Source: Pirellulales bacterium | Lineage (GTDB): Bacteria; Planctomycetota; Planctomycetia; Pirellulales; PALSA-1355 | Reading direction: 5' to 3' | Length of the DNA stretch: 64,000 nucleotides | Assembly: GCA_040877415.1 (NCBI GenBank) | Contig: JBBDNV010000087.1 | Span: 20,884 to 84,883, forward strand | Part shown: piece after piece, positions 9,471 to 55,759 of the stretch | Layout of the letters: each line of letters begins with the position of its first letter | Numbering within the stretch: position 1 is the stretch's first letter | Program-made: the position numbers and the translations under genes | The notes under the pieces: generated by a model | Told to the model about the DNA's origin: nothing | The model's database searches: none | The model's input: only the letters and a program-made list of their open reading frames with translations

Positions 9471-9492
9471 TCACGGCCGCTGCACGCGCACG

Positions 9493-9524: not shown

Positions 9525-9539
9525 ATGCGCATCGTCGGT

Positions 9540-9635: not shown

Positions 9636-9690
9636 AATGGTGACGTCGACGGTCAAAGTGCAACATCAAGAATTGCGCTTCGGGCGGGGA

Positions 9691-35275: not shown

Positions 35276-35608
35276 ATGGCTGATCTAACCACACTCGCCG
35301 GCATTGAAGCCGAGCTTGCTGCCACCGCGGACTACGACGTCGCGATCGACGTTTCCAAGGCGAAGCGTCGTGTGGCGGCGTTGCGCCCCAAGCTCGTCTT
35401 TCCGGAGTCGAGCGGACGCGGCGAGCAGAACATCGCATTCGCCATGCAGGCGATTCAAGACCGGATGCAGCAGGCGTCACGCCGGCGCCGTCATGCGATG
35501 GGTCGGAACGGGGCGGCCCGGACGGAAGCTCTTGGTCTCGTGCCAGGTTGTTTTCGCGCCTGCTGTCGAACAGGCCGCTTCGACCGCCGAGCGCACTTCG
35601 CGCTCTAG
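35276..35608 (+). CDS. Doubtful small ORF
   Basis: The first ~65 aa look protein-like ([36 protein letters not shown]...). The last ~45 aa are Arg-rich and antisense to the 3' end of the GTPase gene (132-nt convergent overlap). Confidence 0.25.
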
Positions 35609-36580
35609 TTGTTCCGGATCGAGCGCCACCCGGGCGTTGACGATCAATTCGGCGTCGCGCGTCTGGCTTCGCGAGGGGAGCGAAAGCTCGGGCTGCGATT
35701 GGCTGCTCACCAGGTTGGCCACGGCGAACGAATCGGGCGCGAGTCCGATCACTTTCAAGTGGGCCGTTTCGGCATCGGCCGCGCCAAGCGCCGCGTGCAA
35801 CCGGCCGATGATGTCGAGCGTCAGCCGATCGAGATCGATCGGTTTGTCGCTGTCGAGCGACAGCCGGGCGTTGAGCCAGCCCAGCTCCGCCTCGCCTGCG
35901 GCATAGATATCGTAGTCCAAGTCCAGAATGCGCCGGCCGAAGTCGCCGCGCTGATCGAGAAACGCCGAAAGCGCGTCAAAACCTGCGCCGCTCTTGGCCG
36001 AGATGCGCAACTGCGGCGTGTCGGGAAACTCATCGGCTACAAGATTGGCAAGCTCGTCGGCGTCGGACGACGACAATTCGTCGATGCGGTTGATCAGAAC
36101 GAGATCGGCTTCTTCGAGCTGCTTGCGAAATATATACGCGGCCTTGGGCGAAAAGCCGGACTTTTCGCGGGGCTTTAAAATCCGCAGCCCATGACTCGGC
36201 TTCAGAATCACGCCATAGGGAGCCACTTCGAACCGTCCCTGGTAAAGCTGCACAAGGGGCTGCACGACCGTGGCGACCAGATCGGTGCAACTGCCGACCG
36301 GCTCGGCCAGGATGAAGTCGGGCCGGGCGGCCGCTTGGAGGCTTTCGACCGTGTTGATCAAATCGTTGAAGTGGCAGCAGAAGCAAGCGCCGGCCACTTC
36401 GCCGACCAGGTGTCCCTGCGACCGCAGCAAGTGCGTATCGACCAGGTCGGCCGCCTGGTCGTTGGTGACGATGCCGACGCTGTGCCCTTGCTTGCCGAGC
36501 ATGCCCGCCAGCCGCCCGATCATCGTCGTTTTGCCCGCGCCCAGAAAGCCCCCGACCATGATGAAGCGAATCGGTTTCAT
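35477..36580 (-). CDS. G3E-family P-loop GTPase (CobW/HypB/UreG-like metallochaperone family)
   Basis: Start at [16 protein letters not shown] (P-loop). GACFCCHF (CxCC metal motif). [17 protein letters not shown] (NKxD-like). Confidence 0.75.
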
Positions 36581-36849
36581 GGCCCAATTGTAATGAGAGC
36601 CGGCGCCAGAGTGCAAGGAAGTCTCACCTGGCGCGCGGGCTGCATTGAGGCGAAACCTCGGATTAGCCGGCCTGGCAATTGTAGGGTATTCCGATGAAAA
36701 CGCATCTGCGGCATATAACGCCGGCCTGTCGCTGAATTCTGACGGTCCACCGCCCGTTGTTACCGAAGGCAGACGACCGCTCCGCCATTATTCTGCGCAA
36801 AAGGTACTCTTAGAGCGGAAGATTTTCTCACCGGGCGCCTGTATGGTTT

Positions 36850-37482
36850 TTGGGGGCAGATGCGATGACATTCCACCTGGGATCGACTTGCAGAGGGTTC
36901 CTGTGGTTGGCCTTTGGCGTGCTCTGGGTGGCTGCCACCGGTACCGGGTTGGCAATGCTGGCTCACTACGCCAATTCAGCCGGCAAAACCCAGCCGGCTC
37001 CGTCGCATTGGCCGATGGGTAGCAGAATCCAATTGAGTGACGATCGTGCCAGCCTGGTCTTGTTTGTTCACCCGCGCTGCCCTTGTACCAGGGCCAGTCT
37101 CGGCGAGTTGGAGAAAATCGTGGCCCATTACGGGGCCGCGATGGAACCGTGGGTGGTGTTTCTGAAACCGGCCGGGGCCGGCAACAACTGGGAGCAGACC
37201 GACCTGTGGAGAACGGCTATCGCGATTCCCGGAGTCCACGTGATCAGCGACGTCGGCGGTGCAGAAGCGCGCCGTTTTCATGCCGTCACCTCGGGGCAGA
37301 CCCTGGTGTACAGCGACCGCGGCGAGTTGCTGTTTGACGGCGGAATTACGTACGCGCGCGGTCATGCTGGAGACAACGCCGGCCGGACTGCGATCGAGAT
37401 GTGCTTGTCCGGCCATGCACCAGGGTACCGAGAAACGCCGGTCTTTGGCTGTTCGATCGCCGTCACGGCCGAGGAGAAATAA
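36850..37482 (+). CDS. Membrane-anchored thioredoxin-fold-like protein
   Basis: N-terminal TM ([21 protein letters not shown]). [17 protein letters not shown] (CPC in a Trx-like position). It ends 11 nt before the histidine kinase gene. Confidence 0.55.
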
Positions 37483-37493
37483 GGAGCCCAGTC

Positions 37494-40243
<2,750 letters not shown>

Positions 40244-40247
<4 letters not shown>

Positions 40248-41176
40248 GAGTGCTGATTGCCGACGACGAACCCGTTTCGCGGCGATTGCTCGAATCGTTG
40301 CTGATTCGGTGGGGCTACGAGGTCGCCGTCGCCGAGGACGGTGCGACGGCCTCGCGAGCACTGCTTTCGCCCGACGCCCCAAAGCTCGCCATTCTGGACT
40401 GGTTAATGCCCGGCATCGACGGGGCACAGCTCTGCCGCGAAATCCGCCGCAACAAGCCGGAACCTTACACGTACATCATCATGCTCACGGGCAAACGCCA
40501 CAAGTGTGACGTGATCAGCGGGCTCGACGCTGGGGCCGATGACTACGTGATCAAACCCTTCGATCCGGCCGAGTTGAAGGTGCGACTGCGCACGGGGAAA
40601 AGAATCCTTTACCTCCAGGATCAATTGATCAGCGCTCGAGAGGCGCTGCGCGACCAGGCCACGCGCGACGCGCTCACCGGACTTTGGAATCGTGCCGCGA
40701 TTCTGAACATCCTGGGCGACGAACTGGAAAGGGCTCGGCGTGAAGGCTCGTTGCTTGGCGTCGCCATCGCCGACCTGGATTTCTTCAAGCACATCAATGA
40801 CACCTATGGACACCCGATCGGCGACGAGGTCTTGCGCAAAGTCGCGCAGGTTATGCGGGAATTCGTTCGGCGATATGATTCGGTCGGTCGCTACGGGGGC
40901 GAGGAATTTCTAATCGTCTTACCAGGATGCGATGCTTGCAACGCGGTAAGCCACGCGGAACGACTGCGGGCCGCCGTCGCCCGCGTCGTCGTGGAGTCGC
41001 CGCGCGGGAACATTTCAACGACCGGCAGCTTCGGCGTTGCCGTGGCCGGCCAACGATCCTCTGCGGACGCTTGTGATCTGATTCAGGCCGCCGACCAGGC
41101 GCTCTACCGCGCGAAGCAAGGCGGACGAAATCGCGTGGAAGGTGGCACGCCCGTCGAGCTGTTAGCCGCATTGTAA
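40244..41176 (+). CDS. Response regulator with GGDEF diguanylate cyclase domain (PleD-like)
   Basis: ATGA overlap with the kinase. REC is [10 protein letters not shown]...[11 protein letters not shown]. The GGDEF active site is [10 protein letters not shown]. Confidence 0.9.
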
Positions 41177-42271: not shown

Positions 42272-43341
42272 AGCGCCACCCGATGATATCCGCCGTGCAG
42301 GTAGTTCATGGTCTGCACGGTCACCAGCACCAGCGCATCGCGTTGCGCCTGATCGACGGGACGGTTCATCCGCAGGTTCAATTCGCGGCAGCGATCGATC
42401 ATTTCCTCGAGCACCTGATCGATGATGTATTGATACTCGCCCGTCCAATGGGCGACCGTTTTGCGCAGATCAGCTCGATTGCGTCGCAGAAACAAGGCGG
42501 CCGACGGTCCTGCGGCGAATTCGGGCGCGTCGGAGAACAGCCGCCGCAGATGCTGGTCGTATAAGTTCGGGAGATTGATCCCGTATTGGTCGCGTTTCTG
42601 CGCGTAGTGCTCGCCGAGCGTCTTGCGCAGCTTGCGAACCGGGTCGACGTGCTCGCGGGAAACCACCGTCGGTTTCTCGCCGCAAATCTCCTTCATCAGC
42701 TCGGCGACGTAGTCGAGCTTTCTGATAACCGGCCAACCTTCGTAGGCTGAGCGCCAGGGCGAACGCGGCCGCAGCCACACGGCGAAGGTCTCGGCGAAAT
42801 CTTCGGCCGGATGCGCCTGGGCATAAGACGGTTCCAGATGCAGCACGTAATTCTTGCTGTACGGCTTGGGATGGTAATTCTCGGGGTAAGGCTTCGTGTA
42901 GCTGCCAAAAAGCTCGCGATACTTTTTGCGGCGGTGCAGACGATAGGCCGTGTCGAGCGCGTGGCCCGTCTCGTGCCGCAAGATGCGCAGGCACCACTCT
43001 TCCGTGCCTCCTTCCACCTCGAGCATCTGCCGGCGCTCGAGCCGGGCCAGGCGCGGATGCGCCAAATAAAACGGAATCGCGACGCCGGGCACGCCGTCGG
43101 GTGAAAACCACTCTTCGGCCAGCCAGAAATGAGGACGGAAGCGAATGGCCCGGTATTCCAGCTCCTCGAACAGCCGTTCGATCCGCTCGTCGAGCGCGGT
43201 GCCTTCGATCACCAGGCCCAGATCGCACATCCGCCACTTGAGCAGCTCGTCGTCGGGCAAATTCGCCCACGACGGCCCCTTGCTGCTCGGGCGCTCAGGG
43301 CGCTGGTTCTCTACGGCGGCCTTGCGATGGTTCGAGTTCAC
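42268..43341 (-). CDS. Putative zinc-binding metallopeptidase (HExxH)
   Basis: ILRHETGHALD (HExxH) and a later AEDFAETFAVWL. It resembles the putative zinc-binding metallopeptidase family. It is coupled to the ATP-grasp gene. Confidence 0.65.
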   Translation of the reverse strand: MNSNHRKAAVENQRPERPSSKGPSWANLPDDELLKWRMCDLGLVIEGTALDERIERLFEELEYRAIRFRPHFWLAEEWFSPDGVPGVAIPFYLAHPRLARLERRQMLEVEGGTEEWCLRILRHETGHALDTAYRLHRRKKYRELFGSYTKPYPENYHPKPYSKNYVLHLEPSYAQAHPAEDFAETFAVWLRPRSPWRSAYEGWPVIRKLDYVAELMKEICGEKPTVVSREHVDPVRKLRKTLGEHYAQKRDQYGINLPNLYDQHLRRLFSDAPEFAAGPSAALFLRRNRADLRKTVAHWTGEYQYIIDQVLEEMIDRCRELNLRMNRPVDQAQRDALVLVTVQTMNYLHGGYHRVAL

Positions 43342-43804
43342 GATCGGTGTTCAGGCTGTGCCGGGAATGGGGGACGCCCAAAATCCGGCAACTCAAGCTG
43401 GTCGTTGATGCGGCGAATTTCCTATTTCAGCAGCAATCGATCTGCGCTGCAATCCTAGCATGTTCGACGCGCGACGGCAGCGAAATCGGCCCCCCGCCCA
43501 GCGTTGAAATCTCTCGGGTGACCGCGATAACCTCACGAACCCGAGCCGTCACGCCACAGATGGCCAAAACCGGACGAGCCGGTCGGCGCCCGCTGAAACG
43601 TCCCCACCGGATCGGCAGACCTTGGGCACCGGGCCGGCGCTGCCCGAAAACCCACGCGACCGGTGCCGTTTTTGGGGGCCATCGAACATCCGCGGGCTAC
43701 TGGTCGCCGCAAACCTTACGAGGGAAACCCAGGCAGGCAGCGACCGCGGTGGGCAACCTTACGGATTTGTAATTTTCGTCGCCCTTTCTGACGCTTCATA
43801 GAAT

Positions 43805-43819
43805 TGGCAACATACATGC
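43805..43819 (+). promoter_or_regulatory. Possible sigma-54 (-24/-12) promoter element
   Basis: TGGCAACATACATGC has GG and GC at the consensus spacing (TGGCAC-N5-TTGC). It lies 55 nt upstream of ATG 43874. This is a single weak match and no enhancer-binding protein is in the window. Confidence 0.25.
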
Positions 43820-43873
43820 CGTGCGCGGCCATTTTTGCGGCGCGCGACGAGACCATTCAGGAAGCCTGCCGAC

Positions 43874-44569
43874 ATGCAACTGACACTGCCCGACGTAGTT
43901 CGTTTGTTCGGCGTGACGGAGAACACGGTCAGGAACTGGATCAACGACGACAACCTGCCCTGCGAAGTCATCGACGATCGTTATCGCTTCAACCAGGCCG
44001 AGCTGTTGGAGTGGGCGACGATCCGCAAGTTGAACGTCTCGCCGTCGATCTTCGAGGCCGTCAACGGCAACGCGGTTTCCGAAAGTTCGCTGTCGGCGGC
44101 GCTCGAAAGCGGCGGCATTGCCTACCAGGTGAAGGCAACCCACAAACGGGCCCTGCTGCGACGTATCGTCGACGAACTTCCACTGCCCGAAGGCTTCGAC
44201 CGCGACGTTCTCTTGCAATTGTTCCTGGCCCGAGAGGCACTTGGCAGCACGGCCCTGGAAGGGGGCATCGCGGTTCCGCATCCGCGCCGGCCCATCGTGC
44301 TCGATGTCGAGCGGCCCATCGTCCGTCTCTGCTTTTTGGCGGAACCGCTCGACTTTCAGGCTCCCGATGGGAAGCCTGTGAATACACTGTTTGCCATGGT
44401 TGCGCCGACGGTGCATGAGCATCTGCAACTGTTGGCACGGCTAGCGTCGGTTCTCAAGGACCACCAGGTGCGGCGCGTGCTGAGCGAACGAGCTTCCGCA
44501 CAGGAAATTCTCGCGGCAGTCAGCGACGCCGACCACCGACTCGGCGCTCGATCGGTGGAGGCCACTTGA
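43874..44569 (+). CDS. HTH (MerR/excisionase-type) DNA-binding protein fused to a PTS EIIA(Ntr)/PtsN-like domain
   Basis: AGGAAG precedes ATG 43874. The HTH is LTLPDVVRLFGVTENTVRNWINDDNLP. The EIIA_2 region is REALGSTALEGGIAVPHPRRP (phosphorylatable His context) ...NTLFAMVAP...HLQLLARLA. Confidence 0.75.
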   Translation: MQLTLPDVVRLFGVTENTVRNWINDDNLPCEVIDDRYRFNQAELLEWATIRKLNVSPSIFEAVNGNAVSESSLSAALESGGIAYQVKATHKRALLRRIVDELPLPEGFDRDVLLQLFLAREALGSTALEGGIAVPHPRRPIVLDVERPIVRLCFLAEPLDFQAPDGKPVNTLFAMVAPTVHEHLQLLARLASVLKDHQVRRVLSERASAQEILAAVSDADHRLGARSVEAT

Positions 44570-46573
44570 ATGGGGCTTTTTCTTGCCGGCCTGGCCGTCG
44601 TCACGTGCGGTGGATTCGTCGCCCTGGCGCTGGCCCGCGCATCGCGCCTGGCCAATCTATTGGGCGCGGCAAGCACGGCCGCCGGCTGCGCGATGGCGCT
44701 GGTTCCCGTGGTCGCGACGCTCGTTTCGGGGACCACTCCGGCGCCGCTGTCGAGGCCATGGAGCGTTCCTTACGGGTCGCTGTCGCTAGGCATCGACCCT
44801 TTGTCCGCGTGGTTCGCGGCGGCCATTCTGGGATTGTCGGGACTAGCCGCGGTCTACGCGGCCGAGTACCTGCTGCGCTATGCGGACCGCAAGAATCTGG
44901 GGGTTGCGTGGTGGTTCTACAGCTTGCTGGTGACGTCGATGGCGGTCGTTGTCACGGCGCGCAACGGCGTTCTTTTTCTCGTCGCCTGGGAAGTGATGGC
45001 GCTGGCGTCGTATTTCCTGGTGGTCTTCGACGACGAGAAGGCCGAGGTCCGCGATGCCGGACGGATCTATCTGATCGCTTCGCACTTGGGAACGGCATTC
45101 CTGCTGGTCTTCTTTGTGCTGCTGGGGCGACAAGCGGGAACCCTTGATTTCGGGGGCATCGAGGATTGGATCCGCGCGACGGGCGGCTTCGCGCCGGCGA
45201 CCGCGGGACTCTTGTTCGTGCTGGCCATCGTCGGCTTCGGGACGAAGGCCGGATTCATGCCGTTTCACGTCTGGCTTCCCAAGGCGCATCCCGTTGCGCC
45301 AAGCCATGTCTCGGCCGTGATGTCGGGCGTGATGATCAAGACGGGCATCTACGGCCTGGTGCGAACGCTGACACTGCTCGGGGAACCAGCCGCCTGGTGG
45401 GGCTGGTTGCTGATCGGTATCGGCGTCGTTTCGGGCATTATGGGAGTGCTCTACGCCCTGGGACAGCACGACGTGAAGCGACTGCTCGCGTACCACAGCG
45501 TCGAAAACATCGGCATCATCGCCCTCGGCCTGGGCATCGGACTGCTCGGCGTCACGCTGGACGAACCGGCCGCGGCAGCGCTCGGCTTCGGCGGCGCCTT
45601 GCTGCACGTCGTCAATCACGCCTTGTTCAAGGGGCTGCTGTTTTTGGGTGCCGGCGCCATCATTCATAGCACGCACACGGCCGACATCGAGCGACTCGGC
45701 GGGCTGCTGAAGCGAATGCCGGTGGTCGGCGTGACCTTTCTCGCCGGCTGCGTGGCGATTTGCGGACTGCCCCCGCTGAATGGCTTCGTCAGCGAGTTCC
45801 TGATCTACCTGGGCGCTTTCGAAGAAGGGACCCTTGCGGGAGGGGCGGGAGGGATTCCCGCATTGTTCGTCATCGGCAGCCTGGCATTGATCGGCGGCCT
45901 GGCCGTCGCGGCATTCACCAAGGCTTTCGGCGTGATCTTTCTGGGCGAGCCGCGCACCGACGCGGCGCGGAACGCTCATGCTCCCGGACTGTTGATGCAG
46001 GCTCCCCTGGTGATTCTGGCCGCGGGCTGCTTACTGGTGACGTTGGCGGCCGTGCCGATTGTCAAAGCGCTCACGCCGGTGCTAGCCGTTGCCGTCGGCC
46101 AGCCAGCAGGCGTCGTGTCCGAGCAGATGACCGGCGCGGTCGGGTCACTGGCCGCCGTCACGGGAATTGCGATCACCTTGCTTGCCGTCGCATCCGCACT
46201 GGCCCTGCTGCGCGTGTGGCTGCTGTGGGGACGCGACGTTGGCGCCAGCCCAACCTGGGACTGCGGATATGCGCGTCCAACCGCCAGGATGCAATACACG
46301 GCCTCGTCGTTCGCTCAACCGCTCGCCGACTTTTTCTCGGCCGTGCTGCAGACGCGGAAAAGGCTTTCGCCGCCCCGCGGGTTTTTTCCGCTCGAAGCGA
46401 GCCTGGAGACCGAAATTCCGGACGTTGCATTGGAGCGCGGCTATCAGCCGCTGTTTCGCGGCGTGAGCTGGATTCTGTCCTGGCTGAGCTGGATTCAGCA
46501 CGGTCGGGTAAGCGTCTACATTCTGTACATCGCGGTGACGATGGTGGCGTTGCTGGTCTGGTACGTCAGTTAA
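44570..46573 (+). CDS. NuoL/HyfB-like antiporter-type membrane subunit
   Basis: 667 aa and about 16 TM. Proton_antipo_M hallmarks are present (GFGTKAGFMPFHVWLPKAHPVAPSHVSAVMSGVMIKTGIYG, LAYHSVENIG). The ATG directly follows the regulator stop. Confidence 0.85.
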   Translation: MGLFLAGLAVVTCGGFVALALARASRLANLLGAASTAAGCAMALVPVVATLVSGTTPAPLSRPWSVPYGSLSLGIDPLSAWFAAAILGLSGLAAVYAAEYLLRYADRKNLGVAWWFYSLLVTSMAVVVTARNGVLFLVAWEVMALASYFLVVFDDEKAEVRDAGRIYLIASHLGTAFLLVFFVLLGRQAGTLDFGGIEDWIRATGGFAPATAGLLFVLAIVGFGTKAGFMPFHVWLPKAHPVAPSHVSAVMSGVMIKTGIYGLVRTLTLLGEPAAWWGWLLIGIGVVSGIMGVLYALGQHDVKRLLAYHSVENIGIIALGLGIGLLGVTLDEPAAAALGFGGALLHVVNHALFKGLLFLGAGAIIHSTHTADIERLGGLLKRMPVVGVTFLAGCVAICGLPPLNGFVSEFLIYLGAFEEGTLAGGAGGIPALFVIGSLALIGGLAVAAFTKAFGVIFLGEPRTDAARNAHAPGLLMQAPLVILAAGCLLVTLAAVPIVKALTPVLAVAVGQPAGVVSEQMTGAVGSLAAVTGIAITLLAVASALALLRVWLLWGRDVGASPTWDCGYARPTARMQYTASSFAQPLADFFSAVLQTRKRLSPPRGFFPLEASLETEIPDVALERGYQPLFRGVSWILSWLSWIQHGRVSVYILYIAVTMVALLVWYVS

Positions 46574-46576
46574 TCG

Positions 46577-47506
46577 ATGCGGTGGGTTGATATGCGGTTC
46601 GTTCCCTTGATCCTCGCGCTTGCGTTGGCCCCGTTGCTGCGGGGGATTATCAACCGCACCAAGGCACGGTTTGCCGGACGAGCGGGTCCGCCGCTGTTGC
46701 AGGCGTATTACGATCTGTCCAAGCTGTTGAGGAAAGGCGCTGTCTACAGCCATACGACGACCTGGGTCTTTCGCGCCGGGCCGATCGTGTCGTTGTCCGG
46801 CGTGCTGGTCGCCGCCACGCTGCTTCCTTTTGGCAATTGTCCCTCCGCGGTCGCATTTCCCGGCGACCTTGTGGTGTTCGTCTATTTGCTGGCCGTGGGG
46901 CGGTTTTTCACCGTGGCCGCGGCGCTCGACACGGGATCGGCCTTCGAAGGCATGGGAAGCAGCCGCGAGGTGTTCTTTTCGGCTCTGGCCGAACCCTCCT
47001 TGTTGCTTGGCATGGCGGCCGTCGCGCGCGAGTCGATTGGAGGATCGGCGTTTACTTCGCTGTCTGAAATACTGAGCGCCGCCAGTGGGCATCTATGGGT
47101 GAACTTGGGGCTGATCCTCGTTTTCGTCGCCGTTGCGCTGTTCGTCGTGTGCCTTGCCGAGAACGCGCGCATGCCCGTCGATGACCCAACCACGCACCTC
47201 GAGCTGACGATGATCCACGAGGTGATGGTGCTCGATCACGGCGGACCGGACTTCGCGCTAGTCAACTATGCCGCGGCGCTCAAATTGTGGCTCACCGCAG
47301 CGCTCATCGTCGGCATCGTCGTCCCGTCCACGCACCTACTCGTCGTGGACGTCGCGGTTTCGCTGTCCGCGATGGCGTTTTTGGCCGTTTTGATCGGCGC
47401 TGTGGAATCGACGATGGCCCGGCTGCGGATGGTGCGCGTTCAGCAGTTGCTCATTGGCGCAGCTACGCTCACCTTTCTGGCCCTGATCCTGGAGTATCGC
47501 GCGTAA
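46577..47506 (+). CDS. NuoH/HyfC/HycD-like membrane subunit
   Basis: 309 aa polytopic. AGRAGPPLLQAYYDLSKLLRKG, ENARMPVDDPTTHLELTMIHE. Alternative start at 46592. Confidence 0.8.
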   Translation: MRWVDMRFVPLILALALAPLLRGIINRTKARFAGRAGPPLLQAYYDLSKLLRKGAVYSHTTTWVFRAGPIVSLSGVLVAATLLPFGNCPSAVAFPGDLVVFVYLLAVGRFFTVAAALDTGSAFEGMGSSREVFFSALAEPSLLLGMAAVARESIGGSAFTSLSEILSAASGHLWVNLGLILVFVAVALFVVCLAENARMPVDDPTTHLELTMIHEVMVLDHGGPDFALVNYAAALKLWLTAALIVGIVVPSTHLLVVDVAVSLSAMAFLAVLIGAVESTMARLRMVRVQQLLIGAATLTFLALILEYRA

Positions 47507-48150
47507 TGACTTCGCCGTCCGACATCATTCTGGTTCTCGTCATCCTGATCAACCTGCTGCTGCTCGGGACGGGACGACTGCGCTCCTGCATTCGCGCTGT
47601 CGCGGTTCAAGGCGCCGCCATCGGGCTCTTGCCGCTCTTGGTCTCGAGCGCAGGATTCAGCCCGCGGCTGACCCTGGTGGCCGTAGTGAGCGTGGCACTT
47701 AAGGGATTCGTGTTTCCGTGGCTGCTCTTCCGGTCGATGCGCAGCGCCAACGTCCGCCACGAAGTCGATCCTGTGATCGGTTACACGGCGTCGATCCTGG
47801 CGGGCGTCGTGTTGACAGGCGCGTCGTTCTGGATGGCGTCGCGCTTGCAGCTTCCCATCGTGCCGGTTTCCGACCTCGTGCTGCCCGTGGCGCTCTCCAC
47901 GATTCTCTGCGGCTTGCTGCTGATCGTGTCGCGCCGCCAGGCCTTGAGCCAGGTCGTGGGCTACCTGGTGCTGGAGAACGGGATTTACATCTTCGGAACG
48001 GCGCTGGCGCACGAGGAGCCGCTGCTGGTGGAAATGGGGATTTTGCTGGACGTGTTCGTGGCGGTCCTCGTGATGGGAGTCGCCGTGTTCCACATCAGCC
48101 GGGAGTTCGACCACATTGACGTCGATCATCTGGCACGCTTGAAGGATTGA
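47506..48150 (+). CDS. HyfE-like small membrane subunit
   Basis: TAATG overlap with the previous gene. 214 aa and about 7 TM. LENGIYIFGTAL resembles the hydrogenase-4 component E family. Confidence 0.7.
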   Translation: MTSPSDIILVLVILINLLLLGTGRLRSCIRAVAVQGAAIGLLPLLVSSAGFSPRLTLVAVVSVALKGFVFPWLLFRSMRSANVRHEVDPVIGYTASILAGVVLTGASFWMASRLQLPIVPVSDLVLPVALSTILCGLLLIVSRRQALSQVVGYLVLENGIYIFGTALAHEEPLLVEMGILLDVFVAVLVMGVAVFHISREFDHIDVDHLARLKD

Positions 48151-48189
48151 AACGGCTCGAGCCGGCCGCAGGGCCGGGAGACAATCCGC

Positions 48190-49755
48190 GTGATTTTACT
48201 GGCACTGATTCTTGTTCCCACGCTGGCCGGCGGGCTGGCGTTCGCGATGCGCGCAAAGATGTGGCGCCGGACGCTCCTGATCGCCACCGCGCTTGTGCAT
48301 GCGGCCTTGACCGCTTCGCTGTGGATCGATCGGCCCGGGCCGGTGCTGAACCAGTGGCTGGCGGTCGATTCCCTGGGGCTCTTGTTTTTGAGCATTGTGA
48401 GCGGGTTGTTTCTCGCCTCGGCGGTGTACTCGATCGCGTACCTGCGCGAGGAAGAGGCCGCTCGTCACATTGACCGCGAGGAGGGGTTTTTATTCTCCAA
48501 TGAGCCGGAGGCGGTGTTCGTCGGTTGCCTGTTGTTGTTCCTGGCGTCGATGACCATGGTGACGCTGAGTCATCACCTGGGATTGTTGTGGGTCGGCATT
48601 GAGGGAACGACGTTGGCCAGCGCGCCATTGATTTACTTCCACAGGCACCATCGGTCGCTGGAGGCGACGTGGAAGTATATTCTCATCTGTTCCGTCGGCA
48701 TTGCCCTGGCATTGATGGGAAACTTTGTCCTGAGCGTGGCCACGACCAGCCCCGACGGCCGGCACGAGATTCCGTTGATCGTCCATCGGCTGCTCGAGAA
48801 TGCCGGCCGGATCCGCGTGGATTGGCTCAGGGCCGCGTTCCTGTTTTTCCTCGTCGGGTACGGGACAAAGATGGGATTGGCGCCGCTGCACACGTGGCTG
48901 CCCGACGCGCATAGCGAAGCGCCCTCGCCCGTCTCGGCATTGCTCTCCGGAGCCTTGCTGAATTGCGCGTTCCTGGGCATCCTGCGCGTTCACCAGTTGT
49001 GCGTTGCCGCCGGTGAAGCGGCGTTCAGCAGTCCGCTCTTGATCTTGTTCGGCGTGCTCTCGCTGACCGTCGCCGCGGTGTTCATCATGCGGCAAACCGA
49101 CATCAAGCGCATGTTGGCCTACTCGAGCGTCGAGCACATGGGAGTGCAGGTCATCGGCGTCGGGCTGGGAGGAGCCGGCGTGTTCGGCGCCATGCTCCAC
49201 TCCGTCAATCATTCCCTGACCAAGGCGGCGCTGTTCCTTACCGCCGGGAACATCCTGGCGTACTTTGGCAGAAAGCGCGTCGACGAAGTGAGCGGAATGA
49301 ACCGCGCGCTGCCCACGAGCGCCGTGCTGTGGATTGCCGGTTTTCTGGCCATTACCGGGTCGCCGCCGTTCGGCGCGTTTCTGAGCGAGTTTACGATCCT
49401 CAAGGCGGCGCTCGACGGCGAGCGATTCGTCGTCGCGGTGCTGTATCTTGTCATGCTAGCGCTGATCTTCGTCGGCATGGCCAACATCTTTTTGCGCATG
49501 GCGCAAGGGGGCCGGCCCAAGACCAAAGGCCCGGGCGCCCGCGAAACGCCGCTGGCCCTGCTGTCGCCGGTGCTGCTGTTGTCGTGCACGCTCGTGCTCG
49601 GCCTGTACGTGCCTCGACCGCTCGAGAACGTCTGCCGCGACGTGCAATCGTCTCTGGAGACTCCGGCCCGCGCCCGAGCGGCGGCGGAGAAGCCCGAGGC
49701 TCGCACGGTACTTTCCCACTCCACCGTTCGGCCGAATCGCACTCTCAAGAAATAG
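48190..49755 (+). CDS. NuoM/NuoN/HyfF-like antiporter-type membrane subunit
   Basis: GTG start with GGGAG 7 nt upstream. GYGTKMGLAPLHTWLPDAHSEAPSPVSALLSGALLN, LAYSSVEHMG. Confidence 0.8.
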   Translation: MILLALILVPTLAGGLAFAMRAKMWRRTLLIATALVHAALTASLWIDRPGPVLNQWLAVDSLGLLFLSIVSGLFLASAVYSIAYLREEEAARHIDREEGFLFSNEPEAVFVGCLLLFLASMTMVTLSHHLGLLWVGIEGTTLASAPLIYFHRHHRSLEATWKYILICSVGIALALMGNFVLSVATTSPDGRHEIPLIVHRLLENAGRIRVDWLRAAFLFFLVGYGTKMGLAPLHTWLPDAHSEAPSPVSALLSGALLNCAFLGILRVHQLCVAAGEAAFSSPLLILFGVLSLTVAAVFIMRQTDIKRMLAYSSVEHMGVQVIGVGLGGAGVFGAMLHSVNHSLTKAALFLTAGNILAYFGRKRVDEVSGMNRALPTSAVLWIAGFLAITGSPPFGAFLSEFTILKAALDGERFVVAVLYLVMLALIFVGMANIFLRMAQGGRPKTKGPGARETPLALLSPVLLLSCTLVLGLYVPRPLENVCRDVQSSLETPARARAAAEKPEARTVLSHSTVRPNRTLKK

Positions 49756-49770
49756 TCGAGCATTCCTCCG

Positions 49771-51297
49771 ATGACGCTCGTTTCCGAAACGCGAAGCATA
49801 CGCAACGGCGAGCGGCTGGCGCTGGCCAAGGTGCCGCAACTGCCGCTCGGCGAACTGCAGTCGTGGCTCGACGAGCGGATCGCCGCCGGCGGTCAGCTTT
49901 CCGCGCTGTTTGGCGTTCCGCTGGACTCGACGGCGCTGGCGCTCTACGCCGTCACGACCGCGGCAACCAGCGGCACCATTGCGGTTGCGGAAACGGTCGT
50001 CAAAGGACGCTATCCCGCGCTCACGCCGCGCGTGCCCCAGGCCCATTGGTTCGAGCGCGAGATCGCCGAGCAGTGGGGCGTGGTGCCCGAAGGCCACCCC
50101 TGGCTGAAGCCGATTCGTTTTCACGCCTCGTACGCCTCCGGCAGGGACGCATGGAACCGGGCGGCCGGCGAGGCGATCCTGCCGGGCGTAACCGATTATT
50201 TCCGGGTCGAGGGGGAGGAAATTCACGAAGTCGCCGTGGGGCCGGTCCACGCCGGCGTCATCGAGCCCGGCCATTTTCGGTTTCAGTGCCACGGCGAGCA
50301 CGTGTTTACGCTGGAAATCGAGCTGGGCTATCAACACCGCGGCATCGAGCGCCAGCTCGTGGGCGGTCCCACGAAGCGGACGCTGCATTACATGGAGACC
50401 CTGGCGGGAGATACCACGATCGGGCACGCAGCGGCGTATTCCCAGGCCGTCGAGGGATTGTCCGGCTCCGCGCCTCCGCTGCGGGCACAAGCCATTCGGG
50501 TGATCGCGCTCGAGCTCGAGCGGCTGGCCAACCACGTCGGCGATCTCGGTGCGCTGGCGCAGGACGTGGGCTATTTGCCGACGGCGTCCTACTGCGGCCG
50601 TCTCCGCGGAGATTTTTTGAACGCGACCGCGATGATTTGCGGCAATCGTTTTGGTCGCGGAACCGTGCGCCCCGGCGGCGTCGGATTCGATATCGACGAA
50701 TCGCTGGCAAAAGCGCTGTGCGAGAAGGTCGAGGCCGCGCTGCGAGACGTCGAGGGAGCCACCCGGCTGCTGTGGACCACGTCGAGCGTCATGGCCCGAT
50801 TTGAGGAGACGGGCAGGGTTTCGCGGGCAACGGCGAGTGAGCTGGGGCTCGTGGGACCGGCGGCCCGGGCGTGCGGGATCGATCGCGACATCCGCCGCGA
50901 CTTTCCGTCCGGATATTATCGATTCGCGCAACTGCCCGTGTCGACGTGGCACTCCGGCGACGCGTTTGCGCGGGCCTACTTGCGCTGGTTGGAGGTGAAT
51001 CGCTCCGCCCGTTTCATCATCGAACAGCTTCGCGCGCTTCCGCACACGACGCTTCGCGCCGAGGTCGGTCCGCTCGAGCCGAATAGCCTGGTGGTCGCGT
51101 TGGTCGAAGGCTGGCGCGGTGAGATTTGCCACGTGGCGCTCACCGACGACGACGGCCGCTTTGCCCACTACAAGGTGGTCGATCCTAGCTTTCACAATTG
51201 GATCGGGCTGGCCATGTCGCTTCGCGACCAGCAGATTTCGGATTTTCCCCTGTGCAACAAGAGTTTCAACCTGTCGTACTGCGGTCACGACCTGTGA
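49771..51297 (+). CDS. Fused NuoC-NuoD / HyfG(HycE)-like large subunit lacking the canonical Ni-Fe cysteine ligands
   Basis: The N-terminal part is 30-kDa-like (AHWFEREIAEQWGVVPEGHPWLKP). The 49-kDa/large-subunit core is GPVHAGVIEPGHFRF, LELERLANHVGD. The L1 position reads ETLAGDTTIGH (no Cys). The C-terminus reads DFPLCNKSFNLSYCGHDL instead of DPCxxCxxR. Confidence 0.85.
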   Translation: MTLVSETRSIRNGERLALAKVPQLPLGELQSWLDERIAAGGQLSALFGVPLDSTALALYAVTTAATSGTIAVAETVVKGRYPALTPRVPQAHWFEREIAEQWGVVPEGHPWLKPIRFHASYASGRDAWNRAAGEAILPGVTDYFRVEGEEIHEVAVGPVHAGVIEPGHFRFQCHGEHVFTLEIELGYQHRGIERQLVGGPTKRTLHYMETLAGDTTIGHAAAYSQAVEGLSGSAPPLRAQAIRVIALELERLANHVGDLGALAQDVGYLPTASYCGRLRGDFLNATAMICGNRFGRGTVRPGGVGFDIDESLAKALCEKVEAALRDVEGATRLLWTTSSVMARFEETGRVSRATASELGLVGPAARACGIDRDIRRDFPSGYYRFAQLPVSTWHSGDAFARAYLRWLEVNRSARFIIEQLRALPHTTLRAEVGPLEPNSLVVALVEGWRGEICHVALTDDDGRFAHYKVVDPSFHNWIGLAMSLRDQQISDFPLCNKSFNLSYCGHDL

Positions 51298-51318
51298 TCC
51301 CACCAGGAGACCATCGCG

Positions 51319-52101
51319 ATGCTGAAAGTGCTCGGAGAACGATGGCGTCAGGGCCACCGCACGATTTCGTGGCCGGCCGGCGCTCCGCCGGTGCTGCCGG
51401 AACGCTTTCGCGGCTTGCCGGTCGTCGACACGTCGAAATGCCCCGACGGGTGCCGCGAGTGCGCTAAAGCCTGCCCGACCGATGCGATCACCGTGAATGG
51501 ATCGCTCAAGTTGGACCTGGGACGCTGCCTGTTTTGCACCGATTGCATGGAAGCCTGCCCAGAGGGAGCGATCGCCTATACCCAGGACTTTCGACTTGCC
51601 TCGCGCACCCGAGACGGCCTCGCGATGGATGGCTCGGCGCTAGCGCTGGCCGCAGCATTGGACGAAAAGACGCGCCGGTTGTTCGGCCGCTCCCTGCAAT
51701 TGCGCGAAGTCAGCGCCGGCGGCTGCAACGGCTGTGAAGCGGACGTCAACGTGCTGAGCACGATCGTGTTCGACCTCAGCCGATTTGGCATCAGCATTGT
51801 CGCTTCGCCGCGCCACGCGGATGGCCTGATCATTACCGGCCCGGTCACCCAAAACATGAAGCTGGCGCTGCGCAAGACGTACGATGCGACTCCGCCGCCG
51901 AAGATTGTCGTCGCCGTCGGGGCCTGCGCCATCAGCGGCGGGCCGTATGTGGATCACCCCGAGCAGAACAACGGCGCGGACAGCGTTGTTCCGGTCGACC
52001 TGTATATTCCCGGCTGCCCACCCCATCCCCTGACGATTCTCGACGGCCTGCTGCGCTTGTTGGGACGGATTGAGGATGGGACGCGGCGCGCCGCAACTTA
52101 A
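51319..52101 (+). CDS. Fusion of a 2x[4Fe-4S] ferredoxin module (NuoI/HycF-like) with a NuoB/HycG-like small subunit
   Basis: AGGAGA precedes the ATG. Ferredoxin motifs are CPDGCRECAKACP and CLFCTDCMEACP. NuoB-type cluster ligands are GGCNGCE, GACAISGGP and PGCPP. Confidence 0.8.
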   Translation: MLKVLGERWRQGHRTISWPAGAPPVLPERFRGLPVVDTSKCPDGCRECAKACPTDAITVNGSLKLDLGRCLFCTDCMEACPEGAIAYTQDFRLASRTRDGLAMDGSALALAAALDEKTRRLFGRSLQLREVSAGGCNGCEADVNVLSTIVFDLSRFGISIVASPRHADGLIITGPVTQNMKLALRKTYDATPPPKIVVAVGACAISGGPYVDHPEQNNGADSVVPVDLYIPGCPPHPLTILDGLLRLLGRIEDGTRRAAT

Positions 52102-52116
52102 AGCGATGTTCGAATC

Positions 52117-54135
52117 ATGGCTCAAGCAACCCTAGAAATTCCACGCGGAAACGCCGCCGGGTTTCGCAAGTATTTCCAGCACGACTTGCCGGCGGGTTTC
52201 CTGGTGTTCCTCATCGCGCTGCCGCTTTGTCTGGGGATTTCCCTGGCCTGCGGGTATCCGCCGCTGGCGGGGATCTTCACGGCCATCATCGGCGCGATTC
52301 TGACGACGTTCATCAGCAATTCCGAGCTCACCATCAAAGGACCGGCGGCGGGTTTGATTGTCATCGCCATAGGCTGCATCGAAGACTTCGGCGGCGACGG
52401 CGCCGTGGGCGGATTCACCGGGGCGGACATGACAGCCTACAAGGTGGCGCTGGCCGTCGGCGTGGCCGCCGCGGTGCTCCAGATCCTGTTCGGCCTGTTT
52501 CGCGCCGGCATCCTGGGTGAGTTCTTTCCGATCTCGGCCGTGCACGGCATGCTGGCGGCGATCGGCGTGATCATCGTCGCCAAACAGATTCCCGTCGCGC
52601 TGGGGGTCGAGGCGAAAGGCGATCCGCTGGTGCTGCTGCGAGACATTCCCCACTTCGTCGTCGAGGCCAACCCGGCCATCGCCGCCATCGGGGTCGTCGG
52701 CATGCTCATCATGTTCCTGTGGCCGGTCGTCCGTCACCGGCTCGGCTTTCTGAAGTTGATCCCGGCGCCCATGGTCGTGCTGCTGGCGACGGTGCCGATG
52801 GGCATGGCCTTCGATCTTTTGCACGCCCATTCATACGCGCTCGAGGGACACAAGTACCAGCTCGGGGGGCAGTACCTGGTGTCGATGCCGGACCGCGTGT
52901 TTGGCATGTTCGATGAGATCACGCTGCCCGATTTTTCGGCCCTTGCCCAGCCGAAGGCCTGGAAGTGGGTGTTCATGTTCTTCGTGATCGGGAGCCTGGA
53001 GTCGCTCTTGAGCGCGAAGGCCATCGACATCATCGACCCGTGGAAGCGCAAGACGAACATGAATCGCGACATGACGGCCATCGGCGTGGCCAACCTGGCC
53101 AGCGCGCTGGTGGGCGGCCTGCCGATGATTTCCGAAATCGTCCGCAGCAAGGCCAATATCGACAACGGCGCGAGGACCCGCTTCGCCGACATGTGGCACG
53201 GCGTCTTCTTGCTGGCCTGCGTGGCGTTGATTCCGACAATCCTGCACCGGATCCCGCTGGCGGCGCTGGCGTCCATGCTGGTCTACACCGGCTACCGGCT
53301 GGCGCATCCTTCCGAGTTCATTCACGTCTATCACGTCGGTCGCGAGCAGCTCGTTGTCTTCGTAACGACCCTGATCGGGGTGCTGGCGACCGACTTGCTG
53401 ATCGGAATCGGGATCGGCATCGGCGTCAAGCTGCTGATTCACATTGTCAACGGCGTGCCGCTGAGTTCGTTGGTCAAGCCGTATCTGGAGGTGTCCGACG
53501 TCGATGACCGAACCTGCAGGATCTTGGCCCACGGTTCGGCCGTGTTCACCAATTGGATTCCGTTCCGCCGCGAAATCGAAAACCTCGGGTTGGTGCAGCG
53601 CAAGAACGTGATCGTCGATCTCTCGGATACGACGCTTGTGGACCACAGCGTGATGGACAAGTTGGCTGTGATGCAGCGCGACTTCGCTCAAGAGGGCTTG
53701 TCGCTCGAGATCACCGGGCTTGACGCCCACCAGCAATTGTCGCGACACGATCAGGCCGCCCGCAAGCGCGGGCTGGCGCGAATCCGCCGCCTCACCGTCA
53801 TCACGGACAAGGCGCACGAGAAATGGCTCGAGGAGGAGTTCGTCGGGTGTGGGGCCAGCGGCTACACCGTCGTCCCTTGCTTGGGAGCCGGCTGGCGGCA
53901 CATCGCCGGGAACGAAGCGTCCGCAAACTCGCAAGTGCGTATCGAGGTGATTGTCACGAACGATGTCTGCGCACGTATTCTTGAATTCTTACGAAGGGAG
54001 GTTCGGCCCGAACACCACACGACTGCTTGCGTCGAAACCGTCGAAGTGTTGCGCATTGGTCAGTTCCGGGTCGATCAAGCCGAACGCATTCCTGGGGTTG
54101 CCGGCATGGCGTCGCAAACCGATCATGGGGGATGA
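52117..54135 (+). CDS. SulP-family anion transporter with STAS domain and an additional C-terminal PII-like domain
   Basis: SulP core ([58 protein letters not shown]). STAS ([19 protein letters not shown]). About 110 extra aa follow, with a beta-alpha-beta-beta-alpha-beta look ([30 protein letters not shown]...[19 protein letters not shown]). Confidence 0.85.
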
Positions 54136-54221
54136 TGGAACCGTCGGGCGCCGCGTGCTCGGCCCCGCGGCGCCGCACGGCGAACTCATCGTCACGGCCC
54201 CCGCTCATCAAGGAGAGTCGA

Positions 54222-54881
54222 ATGCGAACCCTTCGAGAGCTGATCGAAAACAATCGGAAATGGTCGGAAGACATCACGCGGCGCGATCCCGATTTCTTCC
54301 CGCGGCTCGCTCGCCAGCAGCAGCCGCGGTACCTTTGGATCGGATGTGCCGACAGTCGCGTGCCGGCGAACCAGGTCGTGGGTTTGGATCCGGGTGAGTT
54401 GTTCGTGCATCGCAACGTTGCCAATCTGGTCGTGCATTCGGATTTAAACTGCCTTTCGGTGATTCAGTACGCGGTCGAGGTGCTAGAGGTCGAGCACGTC
54501 ATTGTTTGCGGTCACTACGGGTGCGGCGGCGTCAAGGCCGCCCTGGAGAACGAGCAGCTTGGACTGATCGACAACTGGCTCAGGCACATTCAGGACATCC
54601 GAGACAAGCACATGACGAGCCTGGAAAGGATCGCGGACGCCGCGGCTCGCTGCGACCGGCTGTGCGAGCTGAACGTCGTGGAGCAGGTTGTCAACGTGTG
54701 CCACACAACGATCGCGCGGGATGCGTGGCGCAGGAATCAGCCGCTGACCGTGCACGGATGGATTTACCGGATCACCGACGGCCATGTGCGGGACCTGAAC
54801 ATGTGCGTCAGGCACCCGGAGGAGCTGTCCGCGAGCTATAACCTGGCGCGCAGTTCCATTGCCATACCGCGGCACGCTTGA
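54222..54881 (+). CDS. Beta-class carbonic anhydrase
   Basis: AAGGAGAG precedes ATG 54222. WIGCADSRVP (Cys-Asp-Arg zinc site) and VCGHYGCGGV (His, Cys ligands). The length is typical for Can/CynT. Confidence 0.9.
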   Translation: MRTLRELIENNRKWSEDITRRDPDFFPRLARQQQPRYLWIGCADSRVPANQVVGLDPGELFVHRNVANLVVHSDLNCLSVIQYAVEVLEVEHVIVCGHYGCGGVKAALENEQLGLIDNWLRHIQDIRDKHMTSLERIADAAARCDRLCELNVVEQVVNVCHTTIARDAWRRNQPLTVHGWIYRITDGHVRDLNMCVRHPEELSASYNLARSSIAIPRHA

Positions 54882-54982
54882 CGTGGAGACGGAGCTGTCA
54901 CAACTCCTGTGTGGAGAGTGAGTGGGGCTTGGGTGGCCCCGTTTCTCTCCAAGTTCTCCCCAAGATTCGACCACCTGTGCAG

Positions 54983-55282
54983 CTATTCGCCCATGGGACG
55001 GCGGACTTCGTAGCGAGTCATGCGATTCACTTTTTGCGGCAGTTGCTGGACCTGGCAACGCTCGCGGCACTCGGCAATCGTCATCGCATACGGCACCCAG
55101 GATCCGCCATTGAACTCAAACGTCATTTTGTTTTCATCTTCCATTAGCGTGAAGGGTTTACCATATGCGACCGGGGGCTTCCTTTCCGGCATCATCAGAG
55201 GCGCCAGCGGTGGCGGCACATGCGACCCGCGGGTTTGATGCTTCTTCTGACGGTTGCCATGAAATCGTTTTTTCCTACCCAT
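54983..55282 (-). CDS. Small hypothetical protein
   Basis: Start at MGRKKRF. Basic N-terminus followed by a protein-like core (FTLMEDENKMTFEFNGGSWVPYAMTIAECRERC). No family recognised. Confidence 0.35.
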   Translation of the reverse strand: MGRKKRFHGNRQKKHQTRGSHVPPPLAPLMMPERKPPVAYGKPFTLMEDENKMTFEFNGGSWVPYAMTIAECRERCQVQQLPQKVNRMTRYEVRRPMGE

Positions 55283-55438
55283 TGCCGATCCCCTCGCCAA
55301 TGTTGTACGGTTCCGACCGCGCCATACGTGGGCCGAACCGCCCCAGCGCCGGCTTGGGGTCAAAATTGGCCCAAGAACAAACCGGAGGGGCGCGAAACGC
55401 GCCCCTCCGGCTCTTGCATGCAGCCGAAAGATGATCCA

Positions 55439-55759
55439 CTAACGGCCAAAACGACCGCCGCCGCGATAGCCCCCGCGAGCGCCGCTGCGCTCTTCGCGAG
55501 GCTTAGCCTCGTTGACGCTCATCGCGCGTCCATCGTGCTCTTTCAAGTTCAAGCCCTGGATCGCCTGGTTCGCCGCGTTGTCGTCGTCCATCTCCACGAA
55601 ACCAAACCCTTTGCTGCGCCCGGTGTCGCGGTCTTGAATGACTTCGGCGCTGCGCACCGTGCCGAACTCTGAAAACATCTGTTCCAGATCGGCGCTCGTG
55701 ACGTTGTAACTCAAATTTCCTGCGTACAACTTCTTGCCCACAATCGACTCCCTCAACAA
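55439..55759 (-). CDS. RNA-binding protein with RRM domain and Arg/Gly-rich tail
   Basis: RNP2 is KLYAGNLSY. RNP1 is KGFGFVEM. The RGG tail is GARGGYRGGGRFGR. The true start may be the GTG at 55741. Confidence 0.85.
   Translation of the reverse strand: MLRESIVGKKLYAGNLSYNVTSADLEQMFSEFGTVRSAEVIQDRDTGRSKGFGFVEMDDDNAANQAIQGLNLKEHDGRAMSVNEAKPREERSGARGGYRGGGRFGR

Follow-up and report, generated by a model that had tools for sequence, protein, structure and literature searches.

The 64,000-nucleotide stretch analysed here (the window; Pirellulales bacterium, contig JBBDNV010000087.1) carries a run of nine genes on the plus strand (43874-54881), which includes the gene for a 508-residue protein, EhrL (49771-51297). 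Six of the nine make up a complete ehrABCDLS operon. EhrL is the large subunit of the encoded Ehr complex; it belongs to a known family and is not a hydrogenase. Ehr stands for Ech-hydrogenase-related or energy-converting hydrogenase-related complex, and such complexes have been described in Geobacter, Nitrospira, Acidithiobacillus, Methylacidiphilum and candidate phyla; the ehrABCDLS names, and the same gene content and order as found here, come from previous descriptions (PMC6688271, PMC7894505). The six genes are preceded by a regulator-like gene and followed by genes for a transporter and a carbonic anhydrase (Table 1). Eight genes of the run are separated by gaps of 0-39 nt, with a one-base overlap of ehrB and ehrC, and 86 nt precede the carbonic anhydrase gene. 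The operon is intact, with a GC content at third codon positions (GC3) of about 0.8 in every gene checked. The operon structure is drawn from gene spacing only, because a promoter and terminator scan of 43000-55600 gave counts no better than those of shuffled DNA and showed no terminator downstream of the carbonic anhydrase gene.

A Pirellulales metagenome-assembled genome (MAG) encodes a protein (P0001), named 'NADH-quinone oxidoreductase subunit C' at NCBI, that matches EhrL at 100% identity. An antisense open reading frame (ORF; 49456-51357, minus strand, 633 residues) covers the whole ehrL gene and exceeds its length. Its GC3 is 0.68, against 0.80 for the EhrL frame; this ORF is an artefact of high GC content and a possible trap for gene-calling programs. 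The best match of EhrL among PDB sequences (phmmer) is E. coli HycE (7z0s_E, E=1e-42), followed by Thermus Nqo4 (1.3e-29) and Pyrococcus MbhL (3.7e-29). All NCBIfam NuoD models score far below their cutoffs (181 bits against 360, and 148 against 459). The AlphaFold2 model (mean predicted local distance difference test score, pLDDT, 92.8) finds HycE (7z0s_E) as its top Foldseek match with a template modelling (TM) score of 0.86, and NuoCD chains come next at about 0.8. The predicted fold is HycE-like.

The initial annotation held that EhrL lacks cysteine at all four canonical Ni-Fe ligand positions, that the two positions of the C-terminal (L2) motif are Ser and Gly, and that the flanking landmarks of group-4 large subunits are intact. 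Each of these points was borne out. In the phmmer alignment to 7z0s_E, the HycE motif RVC(241)GIC(244)GFAH lies opposite T210-L-A212-G-D214-T215-T-I-G-H219 of EhrL, and DPC(531)YSC(534)TDR lies opposite N500-L-S502-Y-C504-G505-H-D-L508 (the chain numbering of 7z0s_E is the native numbering +12, counted by hand on the printed alignment). The ligand columns are thus occupied by Ala212, Thr215, Ser502 and Gly505, the Ser and Gly of L2 falling in the expected register, and both landmarks are present. A MAFFT alignment of the top 150 cluster representatives of an exhaustive HMMER search agrees; a proper alignment with cysteines in the L1 and L2 columns had been named as evidence that would overturn the claim, and these alignments place no cysteine of EhrL in the four columns.

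Four relatives in the MAFFT set do carry all four cysteines (P0219, P0250, P0269 and P0270; for example ERICGVCAASH...KSFELCYSCTDL), and these occupy the same columns as A212, T215, S502 and G505 of EhrL. A neighbour-joining tree (midpoint-rooted) of 88 near-full-length representatives has the four in an exclusive clade; at least three of the four ligand cysteines are missing from the remaining 84. The pattern found in EhrL, A-T-S-G, is the commonest in the tree set (23 sequences). The absence of the ligand cysteines is a systematic property of the lineage and not a matter of chance. EhrL descends from group-4 [NiFe] hydrogenase large subunits, its nearest all-Cys relatives being about 37-41% identical.

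The residues that stand in place of the ligands are themselves conserved. The motifs are common to all of 120 close homologues with 65-84% overall identity: the commonest L1 variants printed all fit ETL[AS]GD[TS][TS][IV][GA]H, and 116 end exactly in KSFNLSYCGHDL; the family motifs can be written as [AS]-G-D-[TS] at L1 and KSFNLSY-x-G-x-DL at the C-terminus. Over 95 full-length representatives, down to about 35% identity, the residue counts are A48/S30/C13 at position 212, G89 at 213, D85 at 214, T42/S36 at 215, S86 at 502, Y85 at 503, G87 at 505 and D92 at 507. In a 40-sequence alignment with a mean column identity of 41%, G213, D214, S502, G505 and D507 are invariant or nearly so. His506 varies (H35/N24/F12 among the 95), as do the two C-terminal cysteines that had been described as out of register: both Cys495 (C67/I12/V6) and Cys504 (C53/S24/A13) are present in EhrL and lie off the ligand columns. 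Asp214, gained between the two former L1 cysteine positions, is the clearest signature of the family. The site has been replaced and has not decayed, and strong purifying selection acts on the remodelled site and on the three Fe-S clusters of the complex.

Because all four metal-binding cysteines are replaced by different, strongly conserved residues, EhrL is not a hydrogenase. The earlier judgement that a [NiFe] centre is unlikely is well supported by the lack of any ligand cysteine, by the variability of the out-of-register pair, and by the literature (PMC10284858, PMC6349859, PMC13194489). It is also supported by the gene content of the window, where no hyp or hycI gene occurs among the ORFs scanned with Pfam (all but about ten). 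No formate dehydrogenase gene occurs among the scanned ORFs. One further argument of the initial annotation, the lack of a C-terminal extension for maturation, holds as an observation and fails as evidence: the absence is not diagnostic, because the nearest all-Cys relatives likewise end at ...C-x-D-[LR].

The family has already been described as Ehr, and the missing cysteines are not new. The EhrL motifs AGDTTIGH and NLSYCGHDL match those published for the Acidithiobacillus large subunit, SGD[TS][TS][AV][GA]Y and NLSYSGHDL (PMC6002666). In G. sulfurreducens, GSU0739-45 encodes EhrA-1, EhrC, EhrL and EhrS, described as Ech-hydrogenase-related and lacking a Ni-Fe centre (PMC7894505; PMC13194489, citing Coppi 2005). 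All Ehr subunits of this organism were detected in its proteome and were more abundant on formate, and their role was never investigated (PMC7894505). The Ehr of comammox Nitrospira is placed near group 4f, lacks the CxxC motifs and is given as of unknown function (PMC10284858). For the Ehr complexes of Margulisbacteria and Saganbacteria, a coupling of charge translocation to redox reactions in the cytoplasm is suspected, and these complexes occur in genomes for which no complete route to quinones was identified (PMC6349859); a role in pH homeostasis has been suggested for ehrABCDLS of Methylacidiphilum (PMC6688271), and Ehr also occurs in some ammonia-oxidising archaea (PMC10432482).

Table 1. 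Genes of the Ehr operon and the adjoining transporter and carbonic anhydrase genes, with coordinates in the window and profile matches (E-values).
Gene product	Coordinates	Strand	Profile matches
HTH_17 + PTS_EIIA_2 (PtsN-like) regulator; first operon gene, abuts ehrA	43874..44569	+	Pfam HTH_17 1.1e-8, PTS_EIIA_2 7.1e-23
EhrA, HyfB/NuoL-like antiporter-like membrane subunit, 667 aa	44570..46573	+	Pfam Proton_antipo_M 7.7e-57
EhrB, HyfC/HycD/NuoH-like membrane subunit, 309 aa	46577..47506	+	Pfam NADHdh 2.3e-32
EhrC, HyfE-like (NuoK-related) membrane subunit, 214 aa, ATG start 47506	47506..48150	+	NCBIfam HyfE 1.5e-28; Pfam Oxidored_q2
EhrD, HyfF/NuoM/N-like antiporter-like subunit, 521 aa	48190..49755	+	Pfam Proton_antipo_M 1.3e-53; NCBIfam HyfF 1.8e-116, below cutoff
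EhrL, fused NuoC + NuoD/HycE-type large subunit without Ni-Fe ligands	49771..51297	+	Pfam Complex1_30kDa, Complex1_49kDa
EhrS, fused HyfH/NuoI-like 2x[4Fe-4S] ferredoxin domain + HyfI/HycG/NuoB-like small subunit, 260 aa	51319..52101	+	Pfam Fer4 families, Oxidored_q6 9.4e-30
SulP-STAS-PII fusion transporter, probable bicarbonate transporter, 15 nt after ehrS	52117..54135	+	Pfam Sulfate_transp 4e-55, P-II 1.5e-10
Beta-class carbonic anhydrase, 219 aa, ATG 54222 with AAGGAG upstream	54222..54881	+	Pfam Pro_CA 2.8e-55

The electron-transfer subunit, EhrS, aligns to MbhJ (5.9e-35) and HycG (4.3e-33), with GGCNGCE, GACAISGG and IPGCPP conserved. Residues C136, C139, C203 and C233 match the motifs of the proximal [4Fe-4S] cluster of MbhJ and HycG and are conserved in 52-54 of 57 aligned sequences; both four-Cys ferredoxin motifs are present as well, so that each of the 12 Fe-S cysteines is kept in 52-57 of the 57 (the query included). 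The three-cluster Fe-S wire is intact. Among the membrane subunits, EhrA scores 607 bits, under the cutoff of 667, against the NCBIfam model 'hydrogenase 4 subunit B', and the NCBIfam model matched by EhrC is 'hydrogenase 4 membrane subunit' (HyfE); homologues of EhrC are 213-216 residues long. EhrD keeps three charged residues which, from alignment to MbhH, NdhD1 and MrpA, are taken as the Glu of transmembrane helix 5 (TM5), the Lys of TM7 and the Glu of TM12.

The complex is widely distributed. A motif-seeded scan of one genome per species gave at least 592 confirmed matching stretches, in Planctomycetota, Verrucomicrobiota, Myxococcota, Geobacterales, Acidobacteriota, Spirochaetota, Elusimicrobiota, Fibrobacterota and others. 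EhrL is 56-69% identical to its homologues in 80 genome loci from many phyla. Its identity is 68% to homologues in Nitrospiraceae and 58% to the syntenic protein of the isolate Geobacter argillaceus, and Ehr has been described from both of these lineages (PMC10284858, PMC7894505). The proteins of the window were compared by tblastn with 83 loci: the six structural genes occur in nearly every locus with enough sequence, in the same order in most, with EhrA syntenic in 71 and EhrB in 67 of the 83. All-against-all clustering of the ORFs of 82 loci found no recurrent neighbour beyond the six subunits and the regulator; there is consequently no dedicated donor or acceptor module. In particular, none of formate dehydrogenase, NuoEFG or carbon monoxide dehydrogenase recurs in the clustered loci as a conserved electron-donor module, and the idea of a formate dehydrogenase-Ehr association (PMC6349859) is unsupported for this clade.

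The regulator that heads the operon combines a helix-turn-helix (HTH) domain with an EIIA domain and matches NCBIfam PtsN at 2.9e-20, below cutoff; the PtsN-type histidine motif GGIAVPH is present in the EIIA domain, its His being residue 136 of the 231-residue protein when counted by hand. Homologues occur in 49 of the 83 Ehr loci, across many phyla. Such a gene at the head of an Ehr operon implies control by a phosphorelay of the nitrogen-related phosphotransferase type, PTS(Ntr). No report of a conserved EIIA regulator of Ehr was found in the searchable literature. In one 745-residue homologue of EhrL (P0080) the HTH_17, PTS_EIIA_2 and NuoC/NuoD domains are all found in a single protein call, which may be a genuine fusion of regulator and EhrL or the product of two genes joined in gene calling (in locus L001 there is a 4-nt overlap between them). 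Upstream of the operon in the window lie genes for a hybrid histidine kinase (HisKA-HATPase-2xREC-Hpt; 37401-41176, plus strand) and a REC-GGDEF response regulator (35477-36616, minus strand). Farther upstream, a GTPase of the CobW/HypB/UreG superfamily, with a Pfam cobW match, may be a metal chaperone rather than HypB. Other genes of the window belong to the Planctomycete-specific families PSCyt1 and DUF1501 (Pfam scan).

The two genes downstream of ehrS are likely to concern inorganic carbon. The carbonic anhydrase scores 313 bits against the NCBIfam carbonate dehydratase model, above its cutoff of 251. The transporter is a fusion of SulP with a STAS-like region and, at the C-terminus, a PII domain. 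This arrangement, also seen in L004, L059 and L084-L115 (STAS being detected in the L059 orthologue), is taken as a parallel to the SbtA/SbtB pairing and looks like a bicarbonate-transporter architecture that has not been described before. In the clade to which the window belongs (71-81% identity), SulP-PII always lies beside Ehr, in differing arrangements. The contig of P0007 has the same order as the window (Ehr, SulP-PII, Pro_CA), L084 has a divergent SulP-PII upstream of Ehr, and L085 has SulP-PII downstream without carbonic anhydrase; SulP-PII adjoins Ehr in L059 and L100 too. With SulP-PII as the query, 30 metagenome loci were retrieved. In 11 of them the genes immediately upstream of SulP-PII are DabA-DabB, Ehr takes that upstream place in two (L087, on the same contig as L085, and L100), and in L091 a 62%-identical carbonic anhydrase follows. 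Because DabA-DabB and carbonic anhydrase adjoin it in these loci, SulP-PII belongs to an inorganic-carbon gene set, and Ehr in the window's clade is a recurring alternative or additional neighbour of this transporter. Ehr genes and DabA-DabB occur together in L004, where the order is EIIA-EhrL-EhrS-DabA-DabB-antiporter-like-SulP-PII. This stretch of a Planctomycetaceae MAG (3821-10296) encodes a DabA of 1080 residues and a second Proton_antipo_M protein of 550 residues, and thus a DAB locus with two antiporter-like subunits. No report of the association of SulP-PII, DabAB and carbonic anhydrase was found in the searchable literature.

Taking these observations together, we consider it probable that ehrABCDLS encodes a ferredoxin-fed, ion-translocating Fe-S complex which, here, supports inorganic-carbon uptake. 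A soluble carrier of low potential, probably ferredoxin, would donate electrons, and these would travel along the three clusters and reach an acceptor bound in the remodelled pocket at the EhrL/EhrS/EhrB interface. This redox reaction would drive the translocation of H+ or Na+ through EhrA and EhrD, and may also run in the reverse direction. In the Pirellulales lineage the ion gradient would energise the presumably co-transcribed SulP-STAS-PII bicarbonate transporter, the beta-carbonic anhydrase would equilibrate HCO3- and CO2 in the cytoplasm, and the operon would be subject, through the HTH-EIIA(Ntr)-like protein, to phosphorylation control of the PTS(Ntr) type. A soluble donor is suggested because no partner beyond the six subunits and the regulator is conserved in the 82 loci, and ion translocation because the Proton_antipo_M subunits keep the residues taken as TM5 Glu, TM7 Lys and TM12 Glu. 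The link to inorganic carbon is drawn from the tight packing of the nine genes, from the three arrangements in which SulP-PII lies beside Ehr, and from the presence of the same transporter behind DabA-DabB. That the complex is functional and not decayed is argued by the near-invariant motifs, the at least 592 stretches, the retained Fe-S cysteines and the detection of the G. sulfurreducens subunits in the proteome (PMC7894505).

Several points weigh against this reading. No functional or structural study that defines the substrate, ion or direction of any Ehr complex was found in the searchable literature. In EhrD, the residue taken as the TM8 Lys of NuoM/NdhD/MbhH-type subunits aligns with Asn. 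EhrS of Geobacterales lacks the first four-Cys ferredoxin motif, with the second motif and the NuoB-type cysteines staying in place, and the electron entry route is therefore not uniform. Examples of these proteins are at 7260-8006 in L063 and 12204-13136 in L064; the latter locus has an extra regulator-like gene between ehrL and ehrS. With respect to inorganic carbon, SulP-PII has strong matches in 3 of the 83 loci, weaker SulP matches occur in 3 more, and carbonic anhydrase is found in 1, all among the window's Planctomycete relatives. These counts rule out SulP and carbonic anhydrase as a family-wide Ehr trait; confined as it is to these relatives, the linkage cannot define the general function of Ehr. 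SulP transporters carry other anions too, and bicarbonate is proposed as the substrate of SulP-PII on the strength of the neighbouring genes only.

The initial annotation had suggested that the pocket binds another substrate, as the quinone pocket does in NuoD. Another substrate is plausible, given the conservation of the site and of the clusters; the specific analogy with the quinone pocket is not supported. In its full form, this alternative holds that the pocket binds menaquinone and that Ehr is a ferredoxin:quinone oxidoreductase, a minimal proton pump resembling complex I. The subunit set does correspond to the modules NuoB, C, D, H, I, K, L and M/N, the chain of Fe-S clusters is complete, the EhrL model aligns to NuoCD with a TM score of about 0.8, and Ehr has been treated as linking the group-4 hydrogenases to complex I (Marreiros 2013, cited in PMC10284858). 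However, the match of EhrL to HycE (1e-42) is stronger than that to any NuoD (1e-29 or weaker), and its beta1-beta2 loop is of the hydrogenase type, GPVHAGVIEPGHFRF. In the phmmer alignment to 2fug_4, Tyr87 and His38 of Thermus Nqo4, the ligands of the quinone head group, lie opposite Gly213 and Ile164, respectively. Ehr is moreover reported from Riflemargulisbacteria, for which no complete pathway to ubiquinone or menaquinone was identified (PMC6349859). A quinone reductase therefore seems unlikely.

A redox-independent cation/proton antiporter of the Mrp kind, serving pH or ion homeostasis and using the peripheral arm and its clusters only in a structural or regulatory role, is a still weaker candidate, and distinctly doubtful. 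It would accommodate the lack of a conserved donor or acceptor module beside the operon and the linkage of the operon here to genes for bicarbonate and CO2. The regulator conserved with Ehr resembles EIIA(Ntr), a class that controls K+ and ion homeostasis in Proteobacteria. The pH-homeostasis role suggested for Methylacidiphilum (PMC6688271) points the same way. Conservation of the 12 Fe-S cysteines and of the pocket residues across phyla is nevertheless hard to explain without electron transfer, and Mrp systems function without such an arm.

That the operon is a decaying, non-functional remnant of a hydrogenase, as read in an evolution study of Geobacter KN400, is very improbable. The catalytic ligands are indeed lost, and in PMC13194489 Ehr is termed non-functional and two of its subunits are reported to gather missense mutations during long-term culture. 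Yet the operon is intact with the GC3 given above, matching stretches number at least 592 in many phyla, the motifs stay near-invariant at 65-84% overall identity with the Fe-S cysteines conserved, and the Geobacter proteome contains the subunits, at levels that differ between growth conditions (PMC7894505). Least credible is a cryptic [NiFe] hydrogenase that uses Cys495 and Cys504 or other residues as ligands: two cysteines do lie near the C-terminus, with Cys504 adjacent to a ligand column, but L1 is entirely without cysteine, 37 of the 95 representatives have Ser or Ala in place of Cys504 and 28 have another residue in place of Cys495, the Acidithiobacillus proteins read NLSYSGHDL, hyp and hycI are absent from the scanned ORFs of the window, and H2 did not support growth of the A. 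thiooxidans strains that carry these clusters (PMC6002666). The antiporter, the dead relic and the cryptic hydrogenase are progressively less likely in that order.

The ferredoxin-fed, ion-translocating complex favoured here can be set beside several known systems. Published Ehr clusters (G. sulfurreducens GSU0739-45, compared by description, and those of Nitrospira, Acidithiobacillus, Methylacidiphilum and candidate phyla) agree with the window in the types of the six subunits and in their order, and their large subunit is likewise a group-4 homologue without the L1 and L2 cysteines; the replacement motifs of EhrL are those published for Acidithiobacillus. The appended SulP-STAS-PII and beta-carbonic anhydrase genes distinguish the window and are seen only in its close Planctomycete relatives. 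E. coli formate hydrogenlyase and hydrogenase-4 (HycE/HyfG; 7z0s) share the fused NuoC-NuoD protein and the HyfB/C/E/F-like membrane subunits. They differ in that the HycF- and HycG-like Fe-S subunits are fused into one protein here, in that EhrL lacks the four Ni-Fe cysteines and the C-terminal maturation peptide, and in that no formate dehydrogenase, HycB, hyp or hycI gene was found nearby among the scanned ORFs of the window. The four all-Cys relatives, 37-41% identical to EhrL, have the C-terminal frame KSF-x-L-x-Y-x-x-x-D-[LR] in common with it, lack an extension and have the same hydrogenase-type beta1-beta2 loop; unlike EhrL, they keep C-G-x-C and C-Y-x-C. They are probably of the group 4f 'Ehf' type, placed next to Ehr in the literature.

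Complex I NuoD/Nqo4 has the same fold, occupies the same place beside the NuoB cluster and has likewise lost the Ni-Fe cysteines, whereas Ehr lacks equivalents of Tyr87 and His38, has a hydrogenase-type loop and C-terminus, and has no NuoEFG module. The DAB system (DabA/DabB) and cyanobacterial NDH-1MS/CupA place an antiporter-like membrane module within an inorganic-carbon uptake gene set, as is the case here, and the same SulP-PII is found downstream of DabAB or of Ehr. In contrast to these, Ehr has no zinc subunit of the DabA or CupA type and no CO2-hydrating site was identified in it; the link consists in gene neighbourhood only.

For a specialist the missing cysteines are textbook for Ehr and would not surprise. 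Ehr is very widespread (nitrifiers, metal reducers, acidophiles, methanotrophs and many uncultured phyla) and is routinely mis-annotated: the names of the EhrL family in JGI, UniRef and NCBI are 'Ni,Fe-hydrogenase III large subunit', 'hydrogenase large subunit' and 'NADH-quinone oxidoreductase subunit C', and none is 'Ehr'. Metagenome surveys should not count Cys-less Ehr genes as hydrogenases, and surveys based on names would miscount them as hydrogenases or as complex I. The present analysis adds the conservation of the replacement site, the retention of the 12 Fe-S cysteines, the HTH-EIIA gene at the head of the operon in many phyla, the lack of a conserved donor module beside the complex and the lineage-specific extension by inorganic-carbon genes.

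The interest thus lies not in the missing cysteines but in the function of a widespread complex, and in the leads to it: the conserved site and Fe-S chain, the near-universal PtsN-like partner, and the Planctomycete neighbourhood of DabAB, SulP-PII and carbonic anhydrase. A more far-reaching proposal, to which we give little credence at present, is that Planctomycete Ehr would be the energy-coupling engine of inorganic-carbon uptake, a redox-driven counterpart of DabAB and NDH-1MS working with SulP-STAS-PII and the beta-carbonic anhydrase; in a bolder version, the Asp/Thr/Ser pocket would itself act on CO2/HCO3- or gate the delivery of protons for vectorial CO2 hydration. If true, either inorganic-carbon version would be the first function for Ehr complexes.

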